Notes: generated from the sequence alone by a model not told the origin. A stretch of 64,000 nucleotides of DNA from a candidate division WOR-3 bacterium (GCA_039804105.1 JBDRZU010000001.1:928001-992000), one strand, 5' to 3'; shown: positions 1 to 17,184, numbered from the stretch's first letter. Program-made: numbers and translations.

Positions 1-485
1 TATTTTTCACAATCATTCTCTCTTCCTGTTATACATCACCTACTTCGATAAAGTATTATCAACCAATTTTGGATATAAGTATGAAAGACACCTTAAATTT
101 TTCGATTCCACTTGGTAACGATTCTATATGGAACTATGAGGATGTTGATTCAATATATGAAAATATAATAATTTTTGAAAATCAGGGTTTGAATGCTTAT
201 ATTACAGAAATAGATTGGGAAATCTACGATTATACAAACAGAATCAGAGAGGATTATAGCAAAATTTACCTAAATCCTGTAAAAATAGAAAAAAAATCGT
301 CGGATACAATCTCTCTTCTTTTCTTTCTATATGGTTCTTCCGCTACAAGAATTGATGAGGGAGATGGAGTAGAAGATAATGTAGCTTATGGAACCATTCA
401 GTTAAAGATAAAGTATTATGATGATAACGGTATAACTTACACTTCAAAGATATTCTACAAAAATATAAAAGCTGTTGTTGAATAA
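1..485 (+). CDS. Lipoprotein, 5'-truncated at window edge; paralogue of next gene
   Basis: The frame is open from nt 3 (FFTIILSS-C-YTSPTSIKYYQP), giving a lipobox LSSC, so the true start is upstream of the window. Shares YY.QP and DG..DNV..G......Y.D..G..(Y/F)TS with 498..1031. Confidence 0.75.
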   Translation, partial: FFTIILSSCYTSPTSIKYYQPILDISMKDTLNFSIPLGNDSIWNYEDVDSIYENIIIFENQGLNAYITEIDWEIYDYTNRIREDYSKIYLNPVKIEKKSSDTISLLFFLYGSSATRIDEGDGVEDNVAYGTIQLKIKYYDDNGITYTSKIFYKNIKAVVE

Positions 486-497
486 AGAGAGGTATAT

Positions 498-1031
498 ATG
501 AAAAAAATATTTTTCATAATTATTTTTGTAACATTATTTGTCTCCTGTTCTATTGGTCCGATTCCAGTTTATTATTCTCAACCGATAGTTTCCCTTCTGG
601 ATGATACACTTGAAGTTATTTTTTCTGTTCCTGATAAAGACATGTCTGGTTGGAATCACTATAATCAAAACAATATTGGTTCAGATACCGCTTTCCTTTC
701 AATAGATGCTTATGAAACAACAGGAGAAAAAAGTTTCATAGAAAAGATCGAGTATAAATTTATAGTTGATGGCAATACAGTTGAAAGAGAAGATATAACA
801 TATCCAATACCAATAGAAATTGAAGACAAAGATACCGTGAATTTGCCAGATCTCTTGGTCATAATAAACGAACCTCTCGCTTATGAAATCGATATTCAGG
901 ATGGTTATGCTGACAATGTTGGAACAGGAATACTCGAAACAAAAGTATTTTATACTGATATAAAAGGAGAATCTTTTACTTCTGTTCCAATAAGAAAAAG
1001 ATTTAAAGTTATAAAACCTTTAACATATTGA
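498..1031 (+). CDS. Hypothetical lipoprotein
   Basis: GAGG SD; MKKIFF signal peptide with FVS-C lipobox. Confidence 0.8.
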   Translation: MKKIFFIIIFVTLFVSCSIGPIPVYYSQPIVSLLDDTLEVIFSVPDKDMSGWNHYNQNNIGSDTAFLSIDAYETTGEKSFIEKIEYKFIVDGNTVEREDITYPIPIEIEDKDTVNLPDLLVIINEPLAYEIDIQDGYADNVGTGILETKVFYTDIKGESFTSVPIRKRFKVIKPLTY

Positions 1032-1056
1032 CTTTTGAAGATTTATTTAATATGAT
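1028..1056 (+). promoter_or_regulatory. Sigma70-type promoter
   Basis: TTGACT (1028-1033), 17 nt, TATGAT (1051-1056), upstream of an AAGGAGG SD. Confidence 0.6.
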
Positions 1057-1078
1057 TTTATCAAAGGAGGTATCAAAA

Positions 1079-1561
1079 ATGAAGAAAACAATTTTCTTTC
1101 TTACAGTTATATTGTTAATAACTTCCTGCACCCTATATGTGCCTACACCTGATTTCACAATCACATGGATAGATCCTCTTGGAAGTGTTATAACACCAAC
1201 AACAACTGAAGTACTTATTAACACAATAGATGTTGAAAACAATACTTCTTATGAAGCAGTACTTGATAGAATCTCCTATGATTATATCTATAATGGTGAT
1301 GTGATTTACGATGGTCAGGACATCTGGAATATATACGCTTTACTTCCGCCTACAGTAATAGATACTGCGACTGGAGATCCTATCAAAGGAAAAGCAAGTA
1401 TCGAAAATATTCCAATTCCAGTTCCAGCATCAATTTACACTTATATGGATTCAAGAGATATTCAGGGAGTAACTCTGAGGATATACATAAGTGGAACAGA
1501 CAATGTAAATAAAACAAAAAGAACAACAAAGTATGTAGATTACGGAATAGCAAAATATTAA
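1079..1561 (+). CDS. Hypothetical lipoprotein
   Basis: AAGGAGG SD before ATG 1079 (start revised from 1028); MKKTIFF...ITS-C lipobox. Confidence 0.8.
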   Translation: MKKTIFFLTVILLITSCTLYVPTPDFTITWIDPLGSVITPTTTEVLINTIDVENNTSYEAVLDRISYDYIYNGDVIYDGQDIWNIYALLPPTVIDTATGDPIKGKASIENIPIPVPASIYTYMDSRDIQGVTLRIYISGTDNVNKTKRTTKYVDYGIAKY

Positions 1562-1568
1562 ATTTTAA

Positions 1569-1593
1569 AAGAGGGAGTTATAACCTCCCTCTT
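1569..1593. terminator. Probable bidirectional terminator between convergent genes
   Basis: AAGAGGGAG / CTCCCTCTT inverted repeat with A/T-rich flanks. Confidence 0.6.
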
Positions 1594-3356
1594 AATTTTT
1601 CTTTCACTCTTTTAACATTCTCTTTCAGTTTCGAATAATTTTTATCAACTTCAAGACCTTTTTCAAAACTTTTTTGGGCATTCTCATAGGAGCCGACAAG
1701 GTTATCAAGATGAACAGGCACAAAACCGAAAAAACCTGCGGAAAGATAAAACAGGAGAAATTTTTCTGCAAAGTATCCTTCTTCAAAATATGACGCTCCC
1801 ATGTTATTGTAAGCGAGTGATGATTTTGGAGAAATCTCTACTATCCTTTCCATCATTTCGCGTGATTTTAAACTCATCCCAAGATTTTTATAGGTTAAAC
1901 CAAGATTGTAAAGAACCCTTACATTTTCAGGTTCAATATTTTTTGCTTTTTCAAGAAAATATAATGATCTTGGATAATCTCTTTTTGAAGCAAACAAAGT
2001 CCCGAGATTTATAAGAGAGTTCGTGTATAAAGAGTCAAGTTCATAAGATTTTAAAAGATTTTTTTCTGCATCAGCAAAATTACCTTCTTTCATAAAATAA
2101 AGTCCCAGATTGTTTGTTCCAACAACAGATTTTGGATTATTTTTTACAACATAAGACCATAATGATATCTCACTTCTAAAATTTGGAATATAAATTAAAG
2201 TAACGATTAAAAAACAAATAGAATAAAAAAGAAAAATATATTTCCCGATATTTTTTAATTTAGTATATACAAAATATGAAAAAAGAATAAAAGAGAATGA
2301 AGGCAAAAAAAGATATCTATCAGCAAAAAGATTCAAAACCGGTATAAAATTTGAGATAGGGATATAATTTATAACAAAAAATAAAAAAGAAAAAAGAATA
2401 AATTTTTCATCTCTATATCTGTAAACAAAATAAATCAAAATTGAAAAAAGTGAGAGACTCAAGATAAAGAGTTTAAGATTTTTTTCAGAAATCGGAATAT
2501 AATAGTCAACAACAAGTGGATATGGGATAAAAAGATTTTTTATATATTTCATGAAAATATATGGCTGGATTTTTAAAATATCTATGTATGTAGCGTCCCT
2601 TAGCATTCTATTTTCTTTAAAAAATTGATCCATATTTTTAAAATCCGGCATATAAAAACCTAATGTGAAACCAAAGAATAAAATAAAAATGAACGACAGT
2701 AAAATGGTCAAAAAAATTATCATGTAAAATTTTTTATCAACACTTTTTTTGAATATCATGTCATATACAAAAAAAATTAAAGGCAAAACTAAAGCGACCT
2801 CCTTAGAAAAAAGTGCCAGAACAAAGAATACTATAGAAATGATTCTTTTGTTTTCAATATGAAAATAAAAAGATAACATAGAAAAAATGTACAGAAAAAG
2901 TTCTTTTCTATGAGTTATTATAAGAATATTTTCAACATGGACAGGATGCAATGAAAATAAAAACACTGATAACAATGAAAAAATTTTGTTTTCTGTAATT
3001 TTATAAATTAAAAACGATGTAAGAAAAATTGTTATAACATATAGGAAAAGATTTTCCAATCTATAAAAGATAACTTTGTCTTTAAAAAAGAATCTATCAA
3101 GGATTATAGACAATTTTCTTATAGGTCTTTCAGACAATTTTATTGAAAAAACATCTTTTAAATTATCTACAGATTCATCTTCAAATATTGTCGGATAATC
3201 ATCAAACTGAAAAGGATAATTTAAAGAAAACAGATAAGGAACAATCGAAATTAATGAAAGAACAAAAAGAAAAAATAGAAAATTTTTATTTAAAATTTCT
3301 AAAAAACTCTTCTGTTTCTTGAGAACATTCTTTCCAGCTTTTGAATTTTTGTTCAT
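1578..3356 (-). CDS. TMTC-like integral membrane glycosyltransferase (GT-C, O-mannosyltransferase-like) with C-terminal TPRs
   Basis: FQFDD, RPI, LFSLHPVHVE..R.E, LFSKE, ADRYLFLPS and SEISLW motifs; many TM segments; TPR repeats. Start revised to ATG 3356, which follows AGGAG. Confidence 0.8.
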   Translation of the reverse strand: MNKNSKAGKNVLKKQKSFLEILNKNFLFFLFVLSLISIVPYLFSLNYPFQFDDYPTIFEDESVDNLKDVFSIKLSERPIRKLSIILDRFFFKDKVIFYRLENLFLYVITIFLTSFLIYKITENKIFSLLSVFLFSLHPVHVENILIITHRKELFLYIFSMLSFYFHIENKRIISIVFFVLALFSKEVALVLPLIFFVYDMIFKKSVDKKFYMIIFLTILLSFIFILFFGFTLGFYMPDFKNMDQFFKENRMLRDATYIDILKIQPYIFMKYIKNLFIPYPLVVDYYIPISEKNLKLFILSLSLFSILIYFVYRYRDEKFILFSFLFFVINYIPISNFIPVLNLFADRYLFLPSFSFILFSYFVYTKLKNIGKYIFLFYSICFLIVTLIYIPNFRSEISLWSYVVKNNPKSVVGTNNLGLYFMKEGNFADAEKNLLKSYELDSLYTNSLINLGTLFASKRDYPRSLYFLEKAKNIEPENVRVLYNLGLTYKNLGMSLKSREMMERIVEISPKSSLAYNNMGASYFEEGYFAEKFLLFYLSAGFFGFVPVHLDNLVGSYENAQKSFEKGLEVDKNYSKLKENVKRVKEKLRGRL

Positions 3357-4305
3357 AAATTTTTTCTCCTTTGATTTTTTCAACGATCCTTTCAAGATTT
3401 TCCTTATATGATAGATCTTTAATGTAATATATTGGCAAATCTTTATAAATCTCTCGATGAACTGGTATATCCATACAAATAACTCTTTTTCCAAGAAACA
3501 ATCCTTCAGCAACGGGCAAAGAAAATCCTTCCTCTTTTGAAAGATAGATTATAACAAAAGAATCATTTATGATTTTTTCAAATTCCTGGAAAGGAAGATA
3601 CCCTTTAAACTCGAAATCTTTAACCGTTTTTTTTAGATTTTTATCATCAACTCTTCCCGTAATAAGAATTTTTTTATCTTTAAAAAATTCTTTTAAATCC
3701 TTCGCAAGTTTCAAAGCAAGTGAGATATTTTTTCTTTCCTTTAAAGTGGAAGGTATCAAAATATACTCCTCTTTTTGTTTTTCATATTTTCTGTATGTAT
3801 CAAAACCATTATAAATTACACAGTTCTTTTTCGAATTCAGGTTTTTAAATCTTTTTTTATAAATATCCATACAGTTTTTAGTTATAAAAATTATTCCATC
3901 TGATCGTTTCGAAATCAGATTGTATTCGATTTTCCAATAATATCTTGTAAAAATATCCTCTTTTGAACTTTTTTTTTCAGGTATAAAATCGTGTATCGTT
4001 GAAACTGTTTTGTAAAATTTGATCATAGTTGAGCTCTGTTTTGGCATATATAATAGATCAACTTTGCATAATAGACCTATAAAAGGAAAAACAAACTGTT
4101 CATAAAAAAATTTTGTTGCCCTGTTAAAAAATGGAATTCTTATGTATAGGAAATCATCTCGTCCAACAATCTCTCGGGCTTTTTCTTGATCTATGAGAAT
4201 AATATATTTATTATCCTGATCAGAAAAATTTTTCAAAATCATCGTTATATGTGTAGAAACACCTCCACCTTTTGTAATAGATGTTCCATCAACAAGTATT
4301 CTCAT
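3286..4305 (-). CDS. Glycosyltransferase family 4
   Basis: MRILVD..GGG, TIHD, RKN and EGFSLPVAE (E-x7-E) motifs. Confidence 0.85.
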   Translation of the reverse strand: MRILVDGTSITKGGGVSTHITMILKNFSDQDNKYIILIDQEKAREIVGRDDFLYIRIPFFNRATKFFYEQFVFPFIGLLCKVDLLYMPKQSSTMIKFYKTVSTIHDFIPEKKSSKEDIFTRYYWKIEYNLISKRSDGIIFITKNCMDIYKKRFKNLNSKKNCVIYNGFDTYRKYEKQKEEYILIPSTLKERKNISLALKLAKDLKEFFKDKKILITGRVDDKNLKKTVKDFEFKGYLPFQEFEKIINDSFVIIYLSKEEGFSLPVAEGLFLGKRVICMDIPVHREIYKDLPIYYIKDLSYKENLERIVEKIKGEKIYEQKFKSWKECSQETEEFFRNFK

Positions 4306-5098
4306 TTTTTTCCCTCATTATTTTTTTTAGATTTCTTAAAAATTCAAATCTTGCCCTTACTGGTGAAAAATTTTTTTGTTTAAAAACCTGTAATATCATT
4401 ATAAATGGTTCAATAAAAATTAGAAACAATAAAAACATAAAAATATTTTTAGAATCAAAGTTTTTCAAAACAAAAAACAATCGATTCCTTTGTAAAAAAA
4501 ATCTTTTATCTTTTAAACCTGAAGATGAATGTTTGTGGTAAACAACAAGATTTTCATCAAAACAAATTCTTTTAATCTTTTTTAACCTGACCGATAGATC
4601 AACATCTTCATAATACATAAAATAACTTTCGTCAAAACCTTTTAACATTTCAAAAATCTCTCTTTTTATAATAAAAAATGAACCCGTAAGATGGAGTTTT
4701 CTTTTATCATATTTTAGATTTTTGTTTAAAATATTATAAAAAAGTATAATTTTTGAACCAAAAGATTCAATATTTTTTGTATAAAAATTTCTTACAAGTG
4801 GAACAATCACCTCTTCATGAGTATTCTTTACCTTTTTAAAAAAATCTTCATCAAAATATATATCATCGTTTGTAATTATCAGATATTCATTCTCTGAAAA
4901 CTTTGAAGCATAGTTAATTGCCTGACCATAGCCAGCACCAAAAAGTTTTAACACTTTTACTCTTTCATCTTTTAAATCGAAATTTTTGTTTTGTGTTAAA
5001 ACAACTATTACATCACCAATATCTTCTTTTAAATAGGATTTTATCTGTTCTTCAAAAGTGTCATAATAAATGGGAATGATAAGAGAAAATTTATCCAT
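4289..5098 (-). CDS. Glycosyltransferase family 2
   Basis: SLIIP, GYGQAIN, NDD and GFDESYFMYYEDVDLS motifs. Confidence 0.85.
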   Translation of the reverse strand: MDKFSLIIPIYYDTFEEQIKSYLKEDIGDVIVVLTQNKNFDLKDERVKVLKLFGAGYGQAINYASKFSENEYLIITNDDIYFDEDFFKKVKNTHEEVIVPLVRNFYTKNIESFGSKIILFYNILNKNLKYDKRKLHLTGSFFIIKREIFEMLKGFDESYFMYYEDVDLSVRLKKIKRICFDENLVVYHKHSSSGLKDKRFFLQRNRLFFVLKNFDSKNIFMFLLFLIFIEPFIMILQVFKQKNFSPVRARFEFLRNLKKIMREKNENTC

Positions 5099-5990
5099 TT
5101 TTTCTTATACCTTTTAAATTCAAAAAACCACAAAATAACCCTTTCATATAGAAAGAAAATTTTTTCGTTTTAATTATATGAAAAAGGATTGAAATTAAAG
5201 TTCCCAGAATAAATGATACCCAATTTTTCAAAGATAAAATTTTATAGTTTTTGAAATAGATAAAAACTCTGTTCCTACCTTCCCAGAACACTTTTTTTGA
5301 AGAATATTCACTCATTCTGTTTTCGAGTTTCGTCGTTCCTGAAATAAAATGATAACCAACGGTATCCGGTGTAAAAAGGATTTTAAATCCACATTTTTTT
5401 AACCTTAAAGAAAAATCAACATCTTCAAAGTACATAAAAAATCTTTCATCAAGCATTCCCGCTCTAACAAAACAATCTTTCAAAAAATAGCATATTGACA
5501 TCGAGAACCCTTTAACATCCCCTTTAATCATTTGTATTTCATATAATTTTTTACCATGAAGTTTTTTATAGGGTCTTATAAATTTTCCAACATCATCACC
5601 TGCAGAATCAATAAACTCTCCATTATAATCCAAAACCAACGGAGAAAAAAAATGATAATCTTTATTTTGAGTTATGTTTTCTATACAGTTTTTTATAAAA
5701 TTTTTTTCAAGATAAACATCGTTATTCAAAAGTATAATATTTTCAAACTTTGATTGTTTCACTCCAAGATTTACAGCAAAACTAAAACCTTTGTTCTCTG
5801 ATAATCTAAAAAGAGTCACATTCTTTAAATTTTTTAAAAGATACATATAACTTTTATCGGAACTATTGTTATCAACTAGTACAACTTCAGAATAGGGATA
5901 GGTTTGTTGGTTCAACGAAACAACAAGTTTTTCAACAAACTTATCACCATTGTAGTTTATGATAACAACAGAAACTTTATCGTTCAACAA
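5091..5990 (-). CDS. Glycosyltransferase family 2 (rhamnosyltransferase-like)
   Basis: VSVVIINYN, VDNNSSD, NKGFSFAVNLG, LLNND and FFMYFEDVD motifs. TTG start is uncertain. Confidence 0.85.
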   Translation of the reverse strand: MLNDKVSVVIINYNGDKFVEKLVVSLNQQTYPYSEVVLVDNNSSDKSYMYLLKNLKNVTLFRLSENKGFSFAVNLGVKQSKFENIILLNNDVYLEKNFIKNCIENITQNKDYHFFSPLVLDYNGEFIDSAGDDVGKFIRPYKKLHGKKLYEIQMIKGDVKGFSMSICYFLKDCFVRAGMLDERFFMYFEDVDFSLRLKKCGFKILFTPDTVGYHFISGTTKLENRMSEYSSKKVFWEGRNRVFIYFKNYKILSLKNWVSFILGTLISILFHIIKTKKFSFYMKGLFCGFLNLKGIRKNG

Positions 5991-7851
5991 AGAATTTTCC
6001 TTTCATTTTTCTATTTTCAATTTCAAGTATATAGTAATAAAGTCCGGTTTTAAAGTTATTAATATCTATTTTTATGAAGTTTTCTGTCTTGATCCCTGAA
6101 TTTTCAAAAATTCTTTTCCCATCAACTGCAAACATTGTTACTCTATACATTCCCATAAACTCAGAGAATATGTTTATCTCGTCAACAGCAGGATTTGGAA
6201 AAACATAACTTTCAATCGTATCATTAACAAAAAACTCTAAAACCGTATCAATATCTGAAACGTTATTATATTCGTCAACTCCAGTTACAAACAAAATATT
6301 TTCTCCATAACCGATTTTATGAACGGTTCCAGCATTCGAATTAAGTATGGTTCTATAAAGATCTTTTATTTTATAAATTTTTAAATCGTCAAGATAAAGA
6401 TAAAAATCCTGTTCTAAATTCTTATTGAATTCGATTTTCAGAAGTCCTTTTTTGGTTATAAAGTAAAAAGGTTTCCAATCTACTAACTCTCCTTCAAATG
6501 ACTTTATTGGCTCTCCATTTAGATAGATAAAAAAAGATGAATCAGAAAATAACCCTTTATATTTAAAAGATATGATATTTTCTTCTTCAGATAAAAATAT
6601 TTCAAAAACAAAATTTCTGGTGAACAAAGAAAATGGCTTTGAATAGGGATACTGATCTGTTAAACAAAAATTCCCAGTAAAATTTTCAGGCAAAGAATCA
6701 AAGTTTTCTGTATATAAATCATAGGCATTTGAAAATTCAACATTGTAATTTTTTATAATAGAAAAATCGTATGATGGATCAAATGTTATTTTAAAATTGT
6801 TATTATTCATTTTTGCAAGTTCTATGTTATTTACAGGCAAAGGAGAAAAGGTATCGTTTATTCCATATGATAGAAATTCTTTTTTTATTATCTGAAAATC
6901 TTTATCGATACTTAAGTTTATGTAATCCTTATAAAGTTTATACAATGTTGAAAAATTCAATGGATAAAATAATTTTATTCCTTTAAATTTTTCATTTTTC
7001 GTCAAATTAATTATCACAGAATTTTTTAGGTTACATGAAACATCTGTTTCATCGATAATTGAAAAATTGTTTCTATCTGTGAATTTCAACTTGTCAATAT
7101 CTCTTACAATACTTTCAGTTTTAATCGTTGATACGGTTAAATCTTTATAGGATGTTGAATCATAATAATGTTCAAAATATTGTTCAGAGATAGTTATAGA
7201 GATATCTTCTAAATTATTTAAAGTATCTATGCTTTGAAGTATTTTATCATAAGGGAAACCATTATATGGAACTATACCTTCTGAACCAATAATGTAAGAA
7301 ACATAATCCTTGATCTCATAGACAACTTCTATCGATTGCATAAGACAGGCATCAAATATTAAAATATCTGTTTTTTTCTTTGTTTTTTTATATATATCCA
7401 AAAAAATATTTTTAAATTCACCATCAGTTATAGAAATAAAGTCAAACGGATGATTATCAAAAAATATCGATTTATCTTTTGAAGTAAAATTGTACCAACC
7501 ATTACCATGGTCCCATAAAACCATTATTCTTTTATCATAATCATACTTATAAAATGTTGAAAAAAAGTTTGAAATATTATGAAAATCACCTGAATTCACA
7601 TTATCAAAAACTTTAAGGGTCTCACTTCTTCCATCATATATTTTGAAGATAAAGGAATAGAAAGGTGAATCGAGAAAAATTATTATATCAGTATTTTTTA
7701 TTTTTTTTGAACTTTCAATCAATTGATTGTAATTTTTTAGAAAACCATTATAAAGATTGTTATCAGCACAAAAATATCCTATAAAAAGTATCTTAGATAT
7801 AAGAAAATGAGGTAAGAAAAAAAATATTAAAAAAAATGGTAACTTTTTCAT
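5977..7851 (-). CDS. Clostripain-family (C11) cysteine peptidase with T9SS type-A-like C-terminal domain
   Basis: ADNNL, NSGD, LWDHGNGW (His), FDACLMQSIEV (Cys) and GSE motifs. C-terminus VFPNP..GLYYY..KGKFFVER. Signal peptide starts at ATG 7851. Confidence 0.85.
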   Translation of the reverse strand: MKKLPFFLIFFFLPHFLISKILFIGYFCADNNLYNGFLKNYNQLIESSKKIKNTDIIIFLDSPFYSFIFKIYDGRSETLKVFDNVNSGDFHNISNFFSTFYKYDYDKRIMVLWDHGNGWYNFTSKDKSIFFDNHPFDFISITDGEFKNIFLDIYKKTKKKTDILIFDACLMQSIEVVYEIKDYVSYIIGSEGIVPYNGFPYDKILQSIDTLNNLEDISITISEQYFEHYYDSTSYKDLTVSTIKTESIVRDIDKLKFTDRNNFSIIDETDVSCNLKNSVIINLTKNEKFKGIKLFYPLNFSTLYKLYKDYINLSIDKDFQIIKKEFLSYGINDTFSPLPVNNIELAKMNNNNFKITFDPSYDFSIIKNYNVEFSNAYDLYTENFDSLPENFTGNFCLTDQYPYSKPFSLFTRNFVFEIFLSEEENIISFKYKGLFSDSSFFIYLNGEPIKSFEGELVDWKPFYFITKKGLLKIEFNKNLEQDFYLYLDDLKIYKIKDLYRTILNSNAGTVHKIGYGENILFVTGVDEYNNVSDIDTVLEFFVNDTIESYVFPNPAVDEINIFSEFMGMYRVTMFAVDGKRIFENSGIKTENFIKIDINNFKTGLYYYILEIENRKMKGKFFVER

Positions 7852-7881
7852 AAAAAAGGTGGGGTTTAAAAACCCCACCTG
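7852..7881 (-). terminator. Intrinsic terminator after PorV-like gene
   Basis: On the minus strand AGGTGGGGT-loop-ACCCCACCT is followed by a T-tract that runs straight into the next ATG. Confidence 0.75.
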
Positions 7882-7887
7882 ATTTTA

Positions 7888-8940
7888 TTAGAAATTCAGA
7901 GTTAATGTAACTCTATGACCATTAATATAATTGTCTGAAAGAAGTCCCATTTCTGTATAGGAATAATCTATTCCAAGATCTATTCCAGAGAATCCATATT
8001 TGAAACCGATACCTGCTGTAAGGTTTTCAATCTTTTCATTCTGTGTAAGATCATCCATATTATCAAGAACATATTTGAATTTTTCCCAGTTGAATATATA
8101 TCCCAACCTTACAAAGAGTATTTTTGAAAGGTTGTATTCCATTCCGAATCTTATGTTCTCGGTTCCATCGTTTGGATTCTGAAATTCAAGAGTTGTTGTG
8201 AGGAAATTCGTTGGACCTTCAAGAATATCATACGCAAGACCAAAGTTGAAATTCATTGGAAGTGTGTATGTATCAGTTTTGTAGTAGATATTAAGTGGTG
8301 TTTGACCATCAGTCCATTTTGAGTATTTATCTGTTAATATTGTTCCACCTGTAAACATTCCCTCAGATCCAAAATTTCTGATAGACATTCCTATTCTCAA
8401 TGATTTGAAACCTGTTTTATAGAGTGCTCCAGCGTCAAATGCTATCATTGTTGATGTTGCATCTACAATCTTTTCCTGTATATATTTTAATGTTACACCA
8501 GAAGTAAGCTTATCTGTAAAAGATTTTGCATAGGATGCTCCAACAACATAACTTGATGCTGAGAAATATTCTCCTGTTCCTTCTGGTTTATCAACTGTTG
8601 TTATCTCCATTTGAGGCATTGTCATTATTCCTGCCTGTAAACCTAAAGCACCCATTATTCCCATTGGAGCAGCAAAAGCAACATATGAATAACTTATTTC
8701 CGCTGGATATTTAACATAATTAAGAAGCAGCCCCATCTTGTTCATCGTTGCAATTCCTGCTGGGTTGTAATAGAGTGCTGATGGATCATCAGCAACAGAA
8801 ACAAATGCACCACCCATCGCAGTTGCTTTCGAGCCAACCAATATTTTCAAAAACTGAGCACCTGTGGTTCCTTCATTGAAAGAATAGGCAAAATTTGCTA
8901 AAAGTGAAATCGATATGATTATTAATAATAATTTTTTCAT
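7888..8940 (-). CDS. PorV/PorQ-family (UPF0164) outer-membrane beta-barrel
   Basis: GTTGAQFLKI..GSKATAMGGAF..ADD.SALYYNPAG signature; signal peptide; C-terminal Phe. Confidence 0.85.
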   Translation of the reverse strand: MKKLLLIIISISLLANFAYSFNEGTTGAQFLKILVGSKATAMGGAFVSVADDPSALYYNPAGIATMNKMGLLLNYVKYPAEISYSYVAFAAPMGIMGALGLQAGIMTMPQMEITTVDKPEGTGEYFSASSYVVGASYAKSFTDKLTSGVTLKYIQEKIVDATSTMIAFDAGALYKTGFKSLRIGMSIRNFGSEGMFTGGTILTDKYSKWTDGQTPLNIYYKTDTYTLPMNFNFGLAYDILEGPTNFLTTTLEFQNPNDGTENIRFGMEYNLSKILFVRLGYIFNWEKFKYVLDNMDDLTQNEKIENLTAGIGFKYGFSGIDLGIDYSYTEMGLLSDNYINGHRVTLTLNF

Positions 8941-8948
8941 TGTTCCTC

Positions 8949-11900
8949 CTACTTAATGATAGCAAATTTGCCAATTTTTGTTTCACCATTAGGTGTTTGA
9001 ACATGATAGATGTAAATTCCCGGTGCTGGTATCTGATCATTTTTCGTCAAAAGATCCCACTCAGCATATCCTTTTGTTAAGTCATATGCTGTCGTTGTCT
9101 GATTGTCTTTTGTTATTGTAATTTCTACATCATGATTGATAGTTTTTATCAATTCACCTGAAAGTGTGTAAATTCTGATTGTGCACTTATCAGGTAAATT
9201 TGTGAAAAGAATTCTTCTATAGTTATAGTCAAGATCAAGTTCACTTCTGACAACATATGGGTTTGGAACAACTTTAATTTTATCAAGGGTTGATTTTACA
9301 ACATCGGTGAATGTTGCTGGAGTAACTGTGAATTTGAACGAAGAATTTATTGGTGGATATGTTAAAACAAACGCTGTATCATTTGGAGTCACTCTTACAA
9401 TCCAGACATCACCATCTTTTGGTCTTGAACTCCAGACCATTGGTCTTAGCGGTAATGGCGAATTGTTAAATTTCAAAATAATGTTTGAGAAATAAAGACC
9501 TACTTTTACAGTATTGGGTGAACTTGATTTTAGATATTTTGGATTCTGAGATGGAAGGGCAGTTGATGAGATATTGAAATGCCAGTTATCACCTATAGTT
9601 CTACTATTGTACGGAATTTCAATGTTGTTATCAACATCAAAAATCGTTACAGTTAGGTTTGTGTCGTTTGGCAGGAAAGTATCTGTTCCAATAACAGTAA
9701 GTGTTGGATAAACTACTTCATGCCATGTTATGATATATTCTTTACTATTATGATAGAACTGCCTTCCTTTTGCGGCAAGTTCGGCTTTCATGATTGAACT
9801 ATCGTAAGTACCACTCTGGACACTAACTTTGAAGGTTGAATTACTTGTATTCATCCATCCAGTTGTATCAAGTGTGAAACTGTTTATTTTGAATAGGAAA
9901 CCAGAATATGGATTCCATTTTTCAGATGGAAGACCAATTATCTGTTCATTGTTAATCCAAAGAGTATCTAAATCCATCCTATCCTCTATCACTATATCAC
10001 CATTTTTATTTGTGATCGTATATGGATATGCAGGGGTATATATTGTATAAACTGAACTATCTGCAAGTCCAAAAGTCAAGGTAAAAGTATCATTTTTGAC
10101 TTTTTCGATCATTGTATCAAGTGCATGTATAATTTCCATTTTTATCAAAGATGTATCAATATTACCTGATATAAAATTGATCGAATAAGTACCTGGTGAA
10201 AGGTTTGAAGTTAAAGCTCTTGGAACTGCTGCTTTCGTTTTTCCAGCACCTTCAAGAACAAGTGGTATCGCACCGATTGTATCATTCGTTGGAGTAACAG
10301 CATACCCGTTAAAATTAACGTCATAAGCCCTTACTGTATAATAATACTGGATTCCATTTGTAAGGTTTGAATCAACAAAATAGTACGGAATTCCGGTATT
10401 TGAACCGACCGTGTCATAGTAGTATGTTGTTTCATATCTTGCTGCTGCTGCATTGTAATATATCAAAGAATCTTTTAAGACAATCGTATATTCATTGATT
10501 TTATCGAATTTACCAATAAGTTCCCATGTTCCACCTGCACCTGTTCTTGATCTGTAGACATTGTATCCCTCAACATCATATTCTCTATAAGCAGGGTTAT
10601 ATGTTGGAAGTGAAGGATCTGAAACAAGAGTGTAGTATTTGTCTGGAATCAATTCCTGAGCATTATCCCAGTATATAATTACCTTTTTATCCATTCCAAC
10701 AACATCAAAGTTAACCTGCCCAGGTGCAACCGGTCCAAGCCAACCCTGATCATAAATCTGTTGTGCTATAAGCATTTTGTTTAACATTTCAGCAGAGTTC
10801 TTCGAAATTATTATTCCAATTATAACTGTTGCAGTTGAATCATATTTGAGTGTGAATGGTCCTGATGCCATTGCAAATCTTTTATCACCTTTTGCTGTTG
10901 GATCCTCTGTCTTTCCAGGATAACCTGGAACACCCTGTCCCCATGTTGGAAATGGTCTATATGATGCTTCAGGATCATTCGGGTTATAAATTGTATGATC
11001 ATAACCAGCAAGAACGAGATATCTTTTAATATGATCAGAAGGATCAGTTTGTATTGTAAAATAGTTGAATGTTGTCATTCCAATTCTTTCCCCTGCTGGT
11101 ATAATGAAAGAACCATCATGATAAAGATCTATTGGTTCAGTTGCTCTTGGTGATTCAAGATATTTGTATGCAACGATTCCCGGGAAATGAGTCCACCCAG
11201 CCTCTGATTCGAGTTGGAACTGATATCCTACATTGATCTGCATCAAAGTATCATTAACACCAGCATAATCAACTGTCATTGTATCAATGAACCCCAAAAG
11301 ATCGTTTGCAGCAGTTCCTGCTTCGTTTCCTATATCGTTATCAGCACCGATACCAACATAACATTTCTTGATATCTTTGTGATCGCTTCTTTTGTTCTGT
11401 ATTTCATACTTTATGAAAATAATATCTTCTTTCAATGGCCCAACCCAGGCGTATGTTGTTTGTTTTACTTCGATTTCAAGAGGTTTTGAACTTGCAACAA
11501 GGCGATACGCTATATCCATATCGTTGAATTCAGTATAGGAATCCTGCATTGAAACAACTGAGTCAGCACCTGATGTTGTTTTCAAAGGCCATGGTTGTCC
11601 ATAGTTATCACTTGTTGAAATGTATACAATATCCCATGGGTTTGTATACGGTGTTGGTCTATCTGGTGATGCATCATTTATATCACCAGGGACAAATTCT
11701 GTTGATGCAGAGTTTGGATAATAACCACATGACATAGTTGTATCTGCTGTTCCATCATCATTTTCAATTATTCCACCAACCCACACTCCTGCACCAAACA
11801 CATATGTTTCCTGCGGAAAACCAGCAGGCCAATAAAGACCTGAGTTGTTTCCAGAATAAACATCCTGACCAAAAATTGCAAAGTTTGTAATCCATGTGTT

Positions 11901-12044
11901 TATCTGATTTATATCAAGCATCCTCTGATCAAATATTTTCCCAGAGGTCATCTTTGGATCTATATATGCAGGACGAGCAAAAATAGCTATTGAAAAAAGG
12001 AGTGTGAGGAGGATTAAAAATACAGTTTTGTTAATTTTATTCAT
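8949..12044 (-). CDS. Large secreted protein with FN3-like region and T9SS CTD-like C-terminus
   Basis: Signal peptide; EGYNVYRS..YYYTVRAYD; IKVVPNPY...IRIYTLSGELI...WDL...PGIYIY...GKFAIIK. Confidence 0.8.
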   Translation of the reverse strand: MNKINKTVFLILLTLLFSIAIFARPAYIDPKMTSGKIFDQRMLDINQINTWITNFAIFGQDVYSGNNSGLYWPAGFPQETYVFGAGVWVGGIIENDDGTADTTMSCGYYPNSASTEFVPGDINDASPDRPTPYTNPWDIVYISTSDNYGQPWPLKTTSGADSVVSMQDSYTEFNDMDIAYRLVASSKPLEIEVKQTTYAWVGPLKEDIIFIKYEIQNKRSDHKDIKKCYVGIGADNDIGNEAGTAANDLLGFIDTMTVDYAGVNDTLMQINVGYQFQLESEAGWTHFPGIVAYKYLESPRATEPIDLYHDGSFIIPAGERIGMTTFNYFTIQTDPSDHIKRYLVLAGYDHTIYNPNDPEASYRPFPTWGQGVPGYPGKTEDPTAKGDKRFAMASGPFTLKYDSTATVIIGIIISKNSAEMLNKMLIAQQIYDQGWLGPVAPGQVNFDVVGMDKKVIIYWDNAQELIPDKYYTLVSDPSLPTYNPAYREYDVEGYNVYRSRTGAGGTWELIGKFDKINEYTIVLKDSLIYYNAAAARYETTYYYDTVGSNTGIPYYFVDSNLTNGIQYYYTVRAYDVNFNGYAVTPTNDTIGAIPLVLEGAGKTKAAVPRALTSNLSPGTYSINFISGNIDTSLIKMEIIHALDTMIEKVKNDTFTLTFGLADSSVYTIYTPAYPYTITNKNGDIVIEDRMDLDTLWINNEQIIGLPSEKWNPYSGFLFKINSFTLDTTGWMNTSNSTFKVSVQSGTYDSSIMKAELAAKGRQFYHNSKEYIITWHEVVYPTLTVIGTDTFLPNDTNLTVTIFDVDNNIEIPYNSRTIGDNWHFNISSTALPSQNPKYLKSSSPNTVKVGLYFSNIILKFNNSPLPLRPMVWSSRPKDGDVWIVRVTPNDTAFVLTYPPINSSFKFTVTPATFTDVVKSTLDKIKVVPNPYVVRSELDLDYNYRRILFTNLPDKCTIRIYTLSGELIKTINHDVEITITKDNQTTTAYDLTKGYAEWDLLTKNDQIPAPGIYIYHVQTPNGETKIGKFAIIK

Positions 12045-12059
12045 ATTTTTCCTCCATCC

Positions 12060-15000
12060 TTAGAATGAGAATTCAAGACCCAGAGTGATAACTCTTGGTG
12101 CAGACCAGTTCGTTGGGTCATTAAGATAATCTTTATAGTAAGCGATATAAGATTCATAAGCTTCATCTTGTGAAACTGTTCCATCTCTATTTATATCTCT
12201 TCTGACATCATATCCCGGCTGTCCAATCGTATATGCATTGAATATGTCTTTTTTAATAGAGGCAAGTGTTGCGTTTCTGTCTGGAAGACCTGTTGAAGCA
12301 TAAACATCAACAACATTTCTTATGTTGAACAGGTTTGTTACAGTAACATAGAAGTTTGGTTCGAATGTTCCAATTAAGAAACCTTTTCTGAATTTCAAAT
12401 CAGTGTTGAATGTCCATGGTTTTCTTTCACTATTTGTAACACCTGTTTTAACACCTTTTTCGTTAACAGGAGTATATGGTTGTCCAGAGTTGATCGAATT
12501 ATCTATCGAAAGTGTCCAATTATCAGCGTATATTGGCAATTCTTTTGCTGGCATTCTCAAAACAAAACCGATATTTATAGTATGTCTTTGATCAAATGAT
12601 AGATAATAAGGAATCTTTGGCATCTGAATGTCACCACCTGTTACAGGATCTCTTTCAGAATATGTTAGATAATATCCTTCCCATGCATCAGATGCTGTTC
12701 CTTTTGCAAATGAAAGTGTATAAGCGATATCTGTTGAGAAATATTTAGATGATTTTGAAAATGCAACTTCAAGACCTTTCACATTACCATATTCAACATT
12801 TTGCAAAGCATAATAAGGTGCTGGTAATGCATAGACCTTTCTTGAACCAATAAGTCCATATATATCTTTATAATAGGTTGTGACATCTAAAGCCATATCA
12901 GCACCGATTTGGGTTGCTATACCAAATTCGTAAGATATTGTTCTTTCTGCATCAAGGTTTGGTGAACCTATATTTGAGTTTCCTCTTTTTGAAAGATCAA
13001 CACCCATTCCAGAGAAGAGATAATCCATCTGTGGGGTCTGGAAGAAATGACCATAGTTGAAATGTAAAACTGAGACCTCTGAAATTGGATGTGATATACC
13101 CAATCTTGGTGAGAATTTATACTTTTTAGCAGCCATTCTTACTGGCCATGTTAAAGTATCCCAAACAGAATCAGGATATCCTGGATATGAATCAGGTTTT
13201 GTTATATTTGGATTTGGAGTTATAATTATTGTTGTATCACCTGTAATTGTGTCAATTATAGTATCCTGTTGATAGAGTGGGAAACTTCTATTGTTTGCAA
13301 CATAATAGAATGGAGTGTTTGCATCAAGATAATCGAATCTAAGACCTATGTTAACAACCATTCCTTCAAATTCCATCTTATCCTGTACATATGCTGCTGC
13401 CTGTTTTGGATAAACATGGTACTGATCTGAGAATGGATTTGGATCCCATGGAAGATATAGATCCCAGAGATATAATTCATATGCTTTAAACTCAACACCT
13501 GTTTTCATCTCATGGTATCTTCCAATCTGACTTGTCCAATCAGCTTTTACTGTTAGATAATTTGAATATCTAAAACTTGAACTACCATACCAGTTTGGAT
13601 AGATATACTGTGCATCGATCCACCATCCCCATGGAGAGTTGTTTTTCCATTTATCAACCATTCCTGGAACATAATGGAAGTTGTTTGTATCTATCACACC
13701 ATAAGGTTTCCAGAATTCATACCATTTTGGGATAACAACTTCTGGTGGATAAACTGTATCACCATTTTCATCAAAAAGTATCCCATCAAATTCTGGTCCA
13801 TAATGTGTTTGTGTATAGAAATAACTACCAGTTAATGTGACAAAATTTGCCTGGTTTATCATCCAGTTTGCAGTTCCATTGATCTGATATCCATCGGTGT
13901 TTCTTGTAATGAATCTTTCAAGGTTATACTTTAATGAATTGTTAAACTGTTGATAAGAAGAATGTGAATAGAAACCACCAAGATTTATTTTCAAGTTGTT
14001 GGTTGGTTTTACTGTGAACTTTGCCTGTGCATGGTATTCACTTCTTTTGTGGTGTGGGACAACAACACCTAAATTATCCCAGTATGTTGGACCATATCTG
14101 TTCCACATAACCGTGTCAAGCACAACCTTATTAAAATAGTATGTTATATTATTAACAGAGTCATAAACAGTATCAACACCATATTTAAAATATGGAACAG
14201 AGTCCTGTGTCCAGTTCGCTGTTGTATATGTTGTTTCAATATAAGCGTTACCTAAAGAATCATAAGCAATATTGTAATCTACAAAATCATAAGAGAAAGC
14301 GTAACCTGTTGAATCATTTTTATAGAAAAAGTTTGGTTTATCAACAAAAAGAGGTGACCAATCGTTTGTGACATAAATATCACCTGAAACAAAAAATCTC
14401 AAAAGATCTTTATAAATTGGACCACCAATTGAATATTCTAACCTATTATCACCATAGTTAAATGATTTTGGAAGGAATGAATTTCCTTCATATCTTATTG
14501 TTCCTTCATACTTTTTAGCACCTTCCCTTGTAACGATGTTCAAAATTCCTGACATCGCCTCACCATATTCAGCATTGAATCCACCAGAGATGAATTTCAC
14601 CTCTGATACAGCATTTTTATTGATTGTAGCACCAAGTCCCTTTGTAACTGGATCTATGATCGACATACCATCGACCATGTATCCAACCTCATCAGTTCTT
14701 CCACCTCTAACATGTAATTGTGTTCCAGAACCAACAACACCAGCGTTGTTTGCTACAGCAGCCATAATGTTGTTTGAGACTGACTCATCAAGAAGTTGCT
14801 GGTTCATCGTTCTTTCCTTTTGTGTAACATTCGTTTGTATCTTTGACTCTTTCGCTTCAACTATAACGGTATCATATTCGATAGCACCCATGACAAGTTC
14901 AAAGTTGACAGTTGTATTGATATCAGCGGAAACTGAGATATTTGTTTTTGTCTGGGTCTGATATGATATTATCTGAGCGGTAACGGAATAAACTCCAACT

Positions 15001-15212
15001 GGGACATTCAGAATAAAATAGTATCCATCAAGATCTGTAACAGCACCGATTCCAAGTTCTGGTATTATAATGTTAACACCAGGGATACCTTCTTTTGTCT
15101 GTTTGTCAATAACTCTTCCAGTTATTTTTCCTGTAACACCAGCAAAAACATTAACTGAGAAGAGAAGGACCAGAAGGAGAATAATTCCAAAAAGATAATT
15201 TTTCTTAAACAT
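12060..15212 (-). CDS. TonB-dependent receptor with N-terminal carboxypeptidase-regulatory-like domain
   Basis: GKITGRVID..GAVTDLDGYYFI; plug motifs HVRGGR and SGGFNAEYG; SPRLG; NLFN; terminal PRVITLGLEFSF. Confidence 0.92.
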   Translation of the reverse strand: MFKKNYLFGIILLLVLLFSVNVFAGVTGKITGRVIDKQTKEGIPGVNIIIPELGIGAVTDLDGYYFILNVPVGVYSVTAQIISYQTQTKTNISVSADINTTVNFELVMGAIEYDTVIVEAKESKIQTNVTQKERTMNQQLLDESVSNNIMAAVANNAGVVGSGTQLHVRGGRTDEVGYMVDGMSIIDPVTKGLGATINKNAVSEVKFISGGFNAEYGEAMSGILNIVTREGAKKYEGTIRYEGNSFLPKSFNYGDNRLEYSIGGPIYKDLLRFFVSGDIYVTNDWSPLFVDKPNFFYKNDSTGYAFSYDFVDYNIAYDSLGNAYIETTYTTANWTQDSVPYFKYGVDTVYDSVNNITYYFNKVVLDTVMWNRYGPTYWDNLGVVVPHHKRSEYHAQAKFTVKPTNNLKINLGGFYSHSSYQQFNNSLKYNLERFITRNTDGYQINGTANWMINQANFVTLTGSYFYTQTHYGPEFDGILFDENGDTVYPPEVVIPKWYEFWKPYGVIDTNNFHYVPGMVDKWKNNSPWGWWIDAQYIYPNWYGSSSFRYSNYLTVKADWTSQIGRYHEMKTGVEFKAYELYLWDLYLPWDPNPFSDQYHVYPKQAAAYVQDKMEFEGMVVNIGLRFDYLDANTPFYYVANNRSFPLYQQDTIIDTITGDTTIIITPNPNITKPDSYPGYPDSVWDTLTWPVRMAAKKYKFSPRLGISHPISEVSVLHFNYGHFFQTPQMDYLFSGMGVDLSKRGNSNIGSPNLDAERTISYEFGIATQIGADMALDVTTYYKDIYGLIGSRKVYALPAPYYALQNVEYGNVKGLEVAFSKSSKYFSTDIAYTLSFAKGTASDAWEGYYLTYSERDPVTGGDIQMPKIPYYLSFDQRHTINIGFVLRMPAKELPIYADNWTLSIDNSINSGQPYTPVNEKGVKTGVTNSERKPWTFNTDLKFRKGFLIGTFEPNFYVTVTNLFNIRNVVDVYASTGLPDRNATLASIKKDIFNAYTIGQPGYDVRRDINRDGTVSQDEAYESYIAYYKDYLNDPTNWSAPRVITLGLEFSF

Positions 15213-15242
15213 TATTACTCTCCTTTTTAAATCTTAAATTGT

Positions 15243-15273
15243 AAAAAAAAGGGGAAACAAAGTTTCCCCTTTT
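15243..15273 (-). terminator. Intrinsic terminator
   Basis: GGGGAAAC-TTT-GTTTCCCC followed by T8 on the minus strand. Confidence 0.8.
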
Positions 15274-15288
15274 GAATAATTGAAAAAC

Positions 15289-17184
15289 TTATTTAACTGT
15301 GACAATCTTCTTTGTGAAACTGTTGACACCATCGTTAACTTTCACAAAGTAAACACCTTGTTTGAGATTAAGATTGAGCGAGTGTGTTCCTTTTGCGAAG
15401 AATTTTTTAACTTTGTTTACAACTCTACCTGTTGCATCATAAACTGATATTTCAACATTCCTTCCTTCACTCATAACAAAACTTATTGCTCCATTCTTGC
15501 TGAATGAGGAAATATTGTAAACATTTTTATTAACTTTTGAAGAAATTTCTGAATTAATTCCCCATACAGTTGTTCCAAGTTCTTCCCAAACAATTGTTGG
15601 ATCGTTTATATCAACTGATGCATAATATATTGAATCCTGTGAACCAGAAACACCTGCTATGTGTATTAATCCATTTTCGTCAACATATTTACCACATTCA
15701 ACTTCATAAAGTCCTGCATTTAATATAATTGTTGATCTATAAACTTTATCTGTAACAGGATCAAGTTTCAACGCTTCAACTGATGTTCCACCAAATGCTG
15801 GATCAACATAATCAAGGTAAACTATATACATATTATCTGTTGCTTCATCATAGCAGAGGTTTGCACTGTATGCATTTCCTCTCCATGTTGCTGTTGTTCC
15901 TGTATTATCCAAAATATCACCATCATGTATATCTATATAGTCGTATCTAAAGTTTGTTTCACCATCAAATTTATATCCAAAAAGAATTGACTGACCCTGC
16001 CATATGAATGTATAGAGATCACCTGATTCATAATAGTCAACAAAAAGATCAGCCATTGGCACAACATAAGCCATCACACCTGTACCTCTTTCTGGATAGA
16101 ATTCAGCATCCCACCAGTACCACCATGTTCCAAATCCATCTCCAAGTGGTTGTCCAAGTTCATCTGTCCATCCACCTGTTGCAACATCAAGATATGCTTT
16201 AACAGCAAATGCATCGTTTGTTGTATTTGCTGTAGTATCAAGATTATAAATTACTGTATCACCATTTAGTGTATTGACATTTGGCCAGATGTTTCCATCA
16301 AAAAGTCCATAGAAAGCATCCCATGTAACACCAAGATCTGTTGTCTTTGCATAACCTGGAACTATGGCTGAACCAGGACCTGATGGATAAATGTCTGACC
16401 TTGTTTCATCTTTCCACACCATTCCAAAAATACCATGAACATCATCGTTGTTTCCCCATCTTATTGCTGAAACATCTATATCCCAGAGAGTATCATTGTT
16501 AAGTGTTGCTGGCCAATCGTATGTTCCCCATGTTGCACCGTAATCTGTTGAGTAGTTTGAACCAAATCCACCCATCGCATCATAAGCGATCATTACAACT
16601 TTGTCTCCATCAGGATTAACTGCTATTGATGGCATATAAGCCACATAATTTGCTGTATCTGTCACAAGTATTGGTGCACTCCATCCACCACCATTTGCTC
16701 CAAGAAGATCTGCTGTGAACCAATCACCCCAATATGCTGAGGTTCTATAGTTTACTATAACATATGGTGCTTCACCTAATGCTGCAACTGATGCCATTTC
16801 GTTATAGTTTCTTGCAAATGGACCTGATGCTGTTATCAGTGTTGGAGTTGACCATGTTGAACCACCATCTGTTGTTGCTGTATAATAAACACCTCTAAAA
16901 GCACCACCATTATACCAACCGGTAACAACCTGTATTATCTGTCCATCTTTTGATGAAACAATACTCTGAAGTGGTGTTGGAGCAAATCCTCTCATATCAC
17001 CACCAAGTTCAAGTATTCCCTTCATACCTGCTGCCTGTGCATTGGCATCTTTTGTTTCGAAGAATTTACCATCCTGTGAAACTTTTGTGACCTGTTTTAT
17101 CTTTGCAAGTGCATCATTTGCTGGCATTGCAAACAATGAAAATGCAAATGCCAATACAAAGAGAAGAACAAAAATTCTCTTCAT
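15289..17184 (-). CDS. Secreted protein with Asp-box (BNR)-like repeats and T9SS type-A CTD
   Basis: Signal peptide; TTDGGSTW, STDYGATW and TTDLGVTW repeats; VYDATGR..GVYFVKV..TKKIVTVK; AGGAGG SD. Confidence 0.8.
   Translation of the reverse strand: MKRIFVLLFVLAFAFSLFAMPANDALAKIKQVTKVSQDGKFFETKDANAQAAGMKGILELGGDMRGFAPTPLQSIVSSKDGQIIQVVTGWYNGGAFRGVYYTATTDGGSTWSTPTLITASGPFARNYNEMASVAALGEAPYVIVNYRTSAYWGDWFTADLLGANGGGWSAPILVTDTANYVAYMPSIAVNPDGDKVVMIAYDAMGGFGSNYSTDYGATWGTYDWPATLNNDTLWDIDVSAIRWGNNDDVHGIFGMVWKDETRSDIYPSGPGSAIVPGYAKTTDLGVTWDAFYGLFDGNIWPNVNTLNGDTVIYNLDTTANTTNDAFAVKAYLDVATGGWTDELGQPLGDGFGTWWYWWDAEFYPERGTGVMAYVVPMADLFVDYYESGDLYTFIWQGQSILFGYKFDGETNFRYDYIDIHDGDILDNTGTTATWRGNAYSANLCYDEATDNMYIVYLDYVDPAFGGTSVEALKLDPVTDKVYRSTIILNAGLYEVECGKYVDENGLIHIAGVSGSQDSIYYASVDINDPTIVWEELGTTVWGINSEISSKVNKNVYNISSFSKNGAISFVMSEGRNVEISVYDATGRVVNKVKKFFAKGTHSLNLNLKQGVYFVKVNDGVNSFTKKIVTVK

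Follow-up and report, generated by a model that had tools for sequence, protein, structure and literature searches.

The exported proteins of a candidate division WOR-3 bacterium are strongly enriched in the sequon D-(S/T)-(A/I/L/V/M/T), which is the general O-glycosylation sequon of Bacteroidota. We studied this bacterium through a 64,000-nucleotide stretch of its genome (GCA_039804105.1 JBDRZU010000001.1:928001-992000, hereafter the window), in which a TMTC-like GT-C glycosyltransferase is encoded with two GT2 enzymes and one GT4 enzyme next to sequon-rich exported proteins. Judged by their sequences, the exported proteins of this host and its relatives are likely glycosylated at D-S/T sites. 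Our preferred reading, to which we give a probability of about one half, is that WOR-3 bacteria run a Bacteroidota-type general O-glycosylation system with a DUF2723 (TMEM260-like) enzyme as initiator, and that the glycosyltransferase module in the window is an add-on. A sequence-only reading of the window had proposed that an apparently non-Bacteroidota organism glycosylates its surface proteins at these sites, the TMTC-like enzyme possibly starting the glycan. An export-specific sequon excess outside the Bacteroidota and a TMTC-like GT-C were indeed found, but the role of that enzyme as initiator was not upheld.

Sequons were counted beyond the first 30 residues of proteins with at least 100 amino acids and compared with the number expected from each protein's own composition (given below as observed/expected). 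The 1597 genes were called with our own open reading frame rule, and localization followed our own, heuristic hydropathy rule. The exported proteins (n=292) had 1016/372 sites, a 2.73-fold excess (protein-level bootstrap 2.53-2.95), compared with 725/614 (1.18-fold) in the cytoplasmic proteins (n=886), and the enrichment suspected from a few proteins in the window thus holds genome-wide after correction for composition. The heuristically assigned membrane classes formed a gradient between the two (2.07-, 1.48- and 1.34-fold). Most exported proteins (226/292) were above expectation, and the excess persisted in 165 small proteins without a C-terminal sorting domain (CTD; 277/94) and in lipoproteins (154/49). 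When no motif was assumed, the most over-represented of the 8000 tripeptides in exported proteins were DSL, DTL, YAY, DSI, DTI, DST, DTT, FEN and DSV, seven of these nine being sequons, while the top 30 in cytoplasmic proteins included no D-S/T word. Within the signal-peptide proteins (n=233), replacing D by E, N, G or K gave 0.75- to 0.88-fold (0.79-fold for the N form), the swapped pattern (S/T)-D-hydrophobic 0.94-fold, and the permuted pattern D-hydrophobic-(S/T) 1.47-fold, in part because DTT fits both patterns. Phenylalanine as an additional third residue was enriched 2.0- to 2.4-fold in host exported proteins, and alanine and methionine contributed little at this position. The many N-D-T sites suggested N-glycosylation by a PglB/AglB enzyme; this was ruled out because the STT3 family (PF02516) was unmatched in the genome and N-x-S/T showed no excess in signal-peptide proteins (1.08-fold, and 1.01-fold after removal of N-D-S/T).

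The sequon counts first made by hand in the window were exact, with 13 in the TonB-dependent receptor, 12 in the 1031-aa exported protein, none in acyl-CoA dehydrogenase and one each in GcvT and GcvPA. The receptor sites, of which residues 300-368 hold six and residues 650-687 five, compare with a shuffle mean of 3.25, and 0/5000 shuffles reached 13. The 1031-aa protein averaged 4.66 sites in 5000 shuffles (P=0.0026). Smaller numbers were obtained for the clostripain-like protein (5 sites vs 1.9, P=0.035) and the 631-aa protein (5 vs 2.8, P=0.14, not significant alone), of which the latter keeps 3 sites in 5/5 orthologues; the PorV/PorQ barrel has 0 vs 1.1 expected. Eight of the 12 sites in the 1031-aa protein are kept in at least 4/5 family orthologues, which have 15-19 sequons each, and 4 of the 13 receptor sites are kept to this extent. 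Kept sites often swap S/T or the hydrophobic residue, as at positions 101 (DTT/DTL) and 402 (DST/DSM) of the 1031-aa protein, both present in 5/5 orthologues.

As first supposed, the host lies outside the Bacteroidota. Its close homologues are named candidate division WOR-3, with one relative assigned to Candidatus Hydrothermia, and in a RecA tree of 27 rows (3/30 rows were not extracted) it falls together with Ca. Hydrothermia and Ca. Stahlbacteria (support 97/97), apart from Bacteroidota. Given these homologues and the tree, we did not accept the Bacteroidales label on the closest named DUF2723 match (53%) as a guide to the host. The host genome (G000; 1.81 Mb, 85% complete) was compared within a set of 40 WOR-3 genomes (including G000), 61 Bacteroidota genomes and 14 control genomes.

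A profile of the TMTC-like membrane domain matched 22/40 WOR-3 genomes, among them all 13 of the host family, each with a single copy, and had no match in 14/33 near-complete WOR-3 genomes. Five WOR-3 genomes in which it was not found (G013, G018, G023, G026 and G027, 95-100% complete) were as enriched as the host, with 137/40 (3.4-fold), 155/59 (2.6-fold), 73/28 (2.6-fold), 27/8 (3.5-fold) and 49/21 (2.3-fold) sites, lower confidence limits of 1.7-2.9, and DSL, DSI and DST as common leading tripeptides; G024, which carries the enzyme, had 25/12. Among the 61 Bacteroidota, 15 matched and 46 did not. Because equally enriched WOR-3 genomes have no match to it, the TMTC-like family is not supported as the general initiator. 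Nor did sites accumulate near its gene: exported proteins at most 20 kb away showed 2.97-fold vs a genome median of 2.77-fold, 34% of 50 genomic windows were as high, and the receptor and the 1031-aa protein ranked 17th and 59th among proteins of at least 100 aa. In all 7 family loci of sufficient length the run keeps its synteny, but the acyl-CoA ligase and lipoprotein genes on its flanks do so equally; with no local site excess, a dedicated enzyme-substrate locus was rejected. The GT4 gene stands beside the TMTC-like gene throughout the family and, among the matches listed (five loci), outside it only in G024; its close orthologues are confined to the host family (11/12). At eight distant metagenome loci the TMTC-like gene has no glycosyltransferase neighbors, and 17 exported proteins there hold 14 sites vs ~16 expected (summed by hand). 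GT2 and GT4 enzymes are cytoplasmic and draw on nucleotide sugars as donors. They could therefore not extend a sugar on a periplasmic protein, as had been envisaged, and would come into play before that, on a lipid carrier. Likely, the TMTC-like enzyme and the three glycosyltransferases are a family-specific add-on and not the initiator.

The 592-aa protein is nevertheless TMTC-like by structure and sequence comparison, as originally recognized. Full-length fold and PDB searches were dominated by its C-terminal tetratricopeptide repeats (TPRs). The predicted fold of the membrane domain (pLDDT 81.6) was nearest to Pmt4 (Z 17.8) and Pmt2 (17.7) in VIA-align, with ArnT at 16.8, and superimposed on Pmt4, Pmt2, STT3, ALG12 and ArnT with root-mean-square deviations of 4.2-4.8 Å over ~300 residues. 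Ranks 1-20 were all GT-C-fold chains (Z 9.3-17.8), with the next row at Z 5.0 and no TMTC chain among the matches; Foldseek returned matches at E>0.2 only, and no PDB sequence matched the membrane-domain profile. Like the eukaryotic TMTC1-4 (CAZy GT105), which are O-mannosyltransferases of cadherin domains, the protein combines a GT-C domain with C-terminal TPRs and has the first-loop DD (D52-D53, motif M1, invariant in 73/73 aligned homologues) and RP, HPxH, KE and (D/E)R motifs. Compared with motifs M2-M7 in Table 4 of PMC7801869, RP, KE and R are kept, the HKSY mannose-contact stretch is missing, and RxE, DY and DRYLF replace RxD, DW and ERxxY. A further difference is DUF1736 (PF08409), for which there was no match in the protein or the genome (E<=0.1) and which was not among the 25 commonest families of the 73 homologues. 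The bacterial family is very large (46,245 clusters at E<=1e-30; consensus WDD, YRP, HPIHTEAV, RxD, SKE, AERxLY). Thus, the protein appears built like TMTC, and its membership in GT105 stays putative. In six loci on contigs of unrelated lineage (L337, L338 and L340-L343), distant TMTC-like genes occur in tandem pairs, which in 5/6 adjoin a homologue of G000 gene g0159.

If the sites carry a glycan, we consider it somewhat better than an even bet that the first bond is made by the DUF2723 protein and not by YfhO or the TMTC-like protein. Compared with each other, the DUF2723 and TMTC-like profiles matched with a probability of 13% and represent different families. The DUF2723 profile finds human TMEM260 (CAZy GT117, PDB 9rql) with E 3.4e-22, and the catalytic first-loop Asp aligns with D32 in the host protein, which also shares PF11028 and TPRs. 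According to PMC10214176, human TMEM260 makes Man-alpha1-O-Ser/Thr and needs D52, and PMC8698959 gives alpha-Man on Ser as the glycan linkage in B. fragilis. The human enzyme differs in that it acts on IPT domains, reading a motif that is long and degenerate, and its mannose stays unextended; the host protein, of 900 aa, has no self-sequon tail and carries two sequons (at 634 and 729). Matches to DUF2723 above the cut-off were present in 39/40 WOR-3, 61/61 Bacteroidota and 1/14 control genomes (B. thetaiotaomicron), and the family is also widespread in related phyla such as Calditrichota, Fibrobacterota and Zixibacteria. In B. fragilis, the DUF2723 gene was called essential (ES) by the hidden Markov model and uncertain (U) by the Gumbel method (PMC10790697). 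Table S1 of PMC3547785, which from its row numbers and the text we took as the list of 463 essential genes, includes the P. gingivalis counterpart PGN_0192. The host gene lies two genes ahead of that for SprA, the T9SS (type IX secretion system) translocon. DUF2723, endonuclease IV and SprA form a co-oriented run (L027:9833-18817, i.e. G000:C1:147832-156816) with the same order in G004, and SprA (TIGR04189, 358 bits) has 18 sequons vs 6.1. Of 80 DUF2723 loci, 12 had a homologue of a polyprenyl-phosphate-sugar-synthase-like GT2 and none a TMTC-like gene.

In the pathway that we propose, the DUF2723 enzyme would act in the periplasm, taking mannose off a polyprenyl-phosphate carrier and placing it on the Ser/Thr of D-(S/T)-hydrophobic sites; YfhO or other GT-Cs would then extend the O-mannose, and export through the outer membrane would follow. 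In the host family only, the GT2, GT2 and GT4 enzymes of the window would assemble a short lipid-linked glycan on the cytoplasmic side, and the TMTC-like GT-C may transfer it, in the periplasm, to protein-bound acceptors that its TPRs select. This could add an outer glycan to the O-mannose or modify a few clients, such as the probably co-transcribed protease.

Several observations weigh against this reading. In control samples, which span 160-500 kb each, Caldithrix (37/23) and Bacteroidia (47/22) had more sites than expected, but Rikenella (44/37) and Flavobacterium (20/21) showed no excess (pooled Bacteroidota, 147/96), and a Cloacimonadales sample (G045) with DUF2723 and a YfhO homologue showed a slight deficit (48/63, 0.76-fold). 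The presence of DUF2723 hence does not predict sequon enrichment. Per-phylum values from the flanks of the 80 DUF2723 loci were not used, owing to 1-19 exported proteins per named group and poor start calls at high G+C, except that seven Bacteroidota loci were pooled into the Bacteroidota control. Cytoplasmic proteins were slightly above 1 (1.18-fold in the host, 1.63-fold in G023), likely from mis-started exported genes, and the shuffle null is imperfect, because 133/69 sites (1.9-fold) appeared when exported genes were read in the +1 frame; signal peptides were called with our own hydropathy rule. Human TMEM260 reads the long IPT-domain motif and not D-S/T-x. YfhO is nearly as widespread as DUF2723 and also essential, and PMC10790697 gives B. 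fragilis YfhO the firmer call (Gumbel E vs U). In PMC3547785, PGN_1968 is among the essentials shared with B. thetaiotaomicron, a set from which PGN_0192 is absent.

The excess could be structural and involve no glycan, since Asp-Ser/Thr can cap the start of beta-strands and exported proteins are rich in these. Many conserved sites do resemble strand starts (DTV, DSL, DTL), and not all known glycosylating groups show an excess. However, the exported set of E. coli, receptors and fimbriae among it, had 67/59 (1.13-fold, confidence interval 0.88-1.43), and plasmid controls gave 22/17 (Ilyobacter) and 15/18 (Deferribacter). With these and the Cloacimonadales near or below 1, the excess is no general trait of exported proteins, and a missing excess proves nothing, because some members of a known glycosylating phylum show none. 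N-(S/T)-hydrophobic, which would cap strands just as well, is depleted, and the small non-CTD proteins and lipoproteins share the excess, so that we regard a structural origin as improbable. A stronger competitor, though still an unlikely one in our estimate, accepts O-glycosylation and has YfhO (G000:C2:182084-184576) transfer a pre-built glycan en bloc from a lipid carrier, with DUF2723 acting otherwise or upstream. A July 2026 preprint (bioRxiv 10.64898/2026.07.27.740950), in which the enzyme attaching the Bacteroidota O-glycan is still unidentified, predicts YfhO as the oligosaccharyltransferase. PF09586 matched 33/40 WOR-3 (31 over the cut-off) and 58/61 Bacteroidota genomes (45 over the cut-off), and the host protein as query found homologues in two further WOR-3 genomes of four tried. 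YfhO is essential in B. fragilis (PMC10790697) and listed for P. gingivalis (PMC3547785), where PGN_1968 is named a putative YfhO/PMT-family enzyme in Table S3 of PMC8729774; a reported lack of YfhO in P. gingivalis was accordingly dropped as an argument for DUF2723. The host gene lies among those for four GT2 enzymes, a GT4, an LPG-synthase-like membrane protein and a methyltransferase, which together are likely a core-glycan locus. On the other side, most YfhO matches extend over no more than the final 80 positions of the profile, and the family also matches in B. subtilis and L. lactis. In these species YfhO glycosylates teichoic acid, not protein, and YfhO is not known to act on protein. 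We favor DUF2723 because its family includes a proven protein O-mannosyltransferase, although the sequence data cannot separate the two candidates. The YfhO cluster (L286:5613-16760, G000:C2:179613-190760) stands behind the gene of a phospholipase D that carries a sorting domain and 9 sequons (vs 3.6). G000 encodes two further GT-C-like proteins, at L287:7011-8831 (606 aa, weak PMT_2) and L288:4572-6131 (519 aa, PMT_2 over the cut-off), and has two Wzy_C matches.

LpxC was found in 21/22 WOR-3 genomes outside the host class and not found in 18/18 genomes of that class, nor in G024. In G000 (85% complete), LpxD, LpxB, LpxK, KdsB and WaaA had no match and LpxA only a weak repeat match; LptB (53%) and an LptD-like gene are retained, and SprA, PorV and TonB receptors are present. 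The host class thus likely has an outer membrane without lipid A. Since lipid A genes were not found, a lipopolysaccharide (LPS) locus was ruled out for the glycosyltransferase genes. The module could instead make or decorate a non-LPS outer-membrane glycolipid unrelated to the sequons, any O-glycosylation being left to another enzyme. That LpxC was not found in the host class or in G024, the only outside genome with the GT4-TMTC pair, would fit this, as would the retained LptB and LptD-like genes and the Z score of the lipid-modifying ArnT, within 1 of that of Pmt4. We consider it unlikely: TPRs point to a protein partner, strong TMTC-like matches occur in four LpxC-positive WOR-3 (G020, G030, G032 and G038), and a sister family also without LpxC has weak GT-C matches in 2/5 genomes and a strong GT4 match in 0/5. 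Lipid A loss alone does not explain the sequon excess, because LpxC-positive WOR-3 are enriched too; the missing genes do offer a reason for dense surface glycans. That the TMTC-like enzyme starts the glycan in the host family, replacing or doubling an ancestral initiator, is very unlikely. Its fold nearest Pmt4/Pmt2, its mostly retained TMTC motifs, its single copy in all family genomes and the GT4 linkage there and in G024 are set against the same excess and tripeptides in WOR-3 samples without it, the retention of DUF2723 alongside it in 12/13 family genomes, and the lack of a site excess near its gene and at the distant loci.

The predicted WOR-3 system resembles the general O-glycosylation of B. 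fragilis, T. forsythia, P. gingivalis and P. intermedia in its sequon, its restriction to exported proteins, its two GT-C candidates (DUF2723 and YfhO) and T9SS-type export. Phenylalanine as third residue also belongs to the extended motif of PMC8729774. The site-rich TonB receptor and CTD proteins agree with what is reported for T. forsythia, unlike P. gingivalis, which avoids surface proteins. Differences are the stronger excess (2.7-fold vs 1.5-fold in pooled Bacteroidota), the small contribution of A and M at the third position, lipid A genes that were not found, and a different phylum, in which the system is predicted from genes; the TMTC-like family is shared with WOR-3 only patchily. 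The literature covered, with most subscription journals outside it, contained no report of O-glycosylation or lipid A loss in WOR-3, nor of DUF2723 as a bacterial transferase. New are the WOR-3 sequon signal, the exclusion of the TMTC-like family as general initiator, and the lack of lpxC in 18/18 class genomes. The likely range of the O-glycosylation system extends to another phylum, and its sequon can be read from genomes alone, an absent excess being uninformative. Their small genomes, which combine a very distinct sequon signal with a low number of GT-C genes, make WOR-3 a natural filter for the transferase; this filter drops the TMTC-like family as general initiator and leaves two essential candidates, DUF2723 and YfhO. 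Quite speculatively, Bacteroidota-type O-mannosylation might predate the Bacteroidota, started by a bacterial TMEM260 and extended in the periplasm by YfhO; a whole WOR-3 class would have lost lipid A but kept its outer membrane, Lpt pathway and T9SS, with protein O-glycans coating the surface in place of lipid A, and the host family would have added a bacterial TMTC. If true, functional equivalents of two O-mannosyltransferase families of animals would sit together in a single small genome.

Table 1. Features in and around positions 1,569-17,184, counted in the whole 64,000-nt stretch, and the DUF2723 gene elsewhere in the host genome.
Feature	Position	Strand	Remarks
TMTC-like GT-C glycosyltransferase, 592 aa	1578..3356	-	membrane domain ~25-393, TPRs ~400-590
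GT-C residues	1578..3356	-	D52-D53, R77-P78, H137-P-V-H, R150-K-E, K185-E186, D346-R347
GT4 glycosyltransferase, 339 aa	3286..4305	-	PF00534 45.8 bits; 71-base overlap with GT-C gene
GT2 glycosyltransferase, 269 aa	4289..5098	-	PF00535 28.7 bits
GT2 glycosyltransferase, 299 aa	5091..5990	-	PF00535 70.3 bits
Clostripain-family (C11) protease with T9SS C-terminal sorting domain, 624 aa	5977..7851	-	PF03415, PF18962; 5 sequons
Intrinsic-terminator-like hairpin (predicted from consensus match)	7857..7880	-	10 pairs (6 G-C) and T run; separates PorV from protease-GT genes
PorV/PorQ family outer-membrane barrel, 350 aa	7888..8940	-	NF033709 175.6 bits, cut-off 90; 0 sequons
Exported protein, likely T9SS-type C-terminal domain, 1031 aa	8949..12044	-	TIGR04183 19.1 bits, below cut-off 23; 12 sequons
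TonB-dependent receptor, 1050 aa	12060..15212	-	PF00593, PF07715, PF13715; 13 sequons
Short terminator-like hairpin, weak	15252..15269	-	6 pairs; between 631-aa gene and receptor
Exported protein with T9SS C-terminal sorting domain, 631 aa	15289..17184	-	PF18962, TIGR04183; 5 sequons
Hairpin at convergent junction of lipoprotein genes and GT-C gene	1569..1593	+	
Three convergent small lipoprotein genes	3..1561	+	no known family; 4, 3, 1 sequons; first begins just outside window
TMEM260-like DUF2723 gene, 900 aa	G000:C1:147832-150534		outside window; PF11028 146.6 bits, TPRs

The order and identities of the GT2, GT2, GT4 and TPR membrane protein genes were as first described, and all genes of the run lie on the minus strand (Table 1). 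The claim of one co-oriented run holds for the strand; a terminator-like hairpin splits the receptor genes from the glycosyltransferase genes. The five genes at the glycosyltransferase end, beginning with that of the protease, which overlaps the first GT2 gene, overlap successively by 8-71 bases, and G+C falls from 0.34-0.37 to 0.24-0.26 across the hairpin at 7880-7857. For these reasons, the glycosyltransferase genes most likely share a transcription unit with the protease and would be reached from the receptor genes at best by read-through; a promoter scan was near chance (102 matches vs 84.6 expected). The start of the GT-C gene at 3356 agrees with those of its orthologues. The GT2 at 5091..5990 is rhamnosyltransferase-like only below the cut-off (TIGR01556, 75.8 bits vs 200.55).

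Three closely packed genes, for the TonB receptor, the 1031-aa protein (no Pfam family) and PorV/PorQ, stay together throughout the family (7888-15212). The top ESM Atlas cluster of the 1031-aa protein is a 'putative T9SS type A sorting domain-containing protein' (score 0.98), and its look-alikes in the Atlas come from WOR-3 and Eisenbacteria. The small lipoprotein genes (160-177 aa, no known family) belong to a family-wide conserved row of four that runs convergently toward the GT-C gene (3-1561 and upstream), and those in the window share the sequon signal. Between the HU and acyl-CoA ligase genes, at 17843-18328, lies a gene for a 161-aa exported protein without family match, which we presume may be LptE-like.

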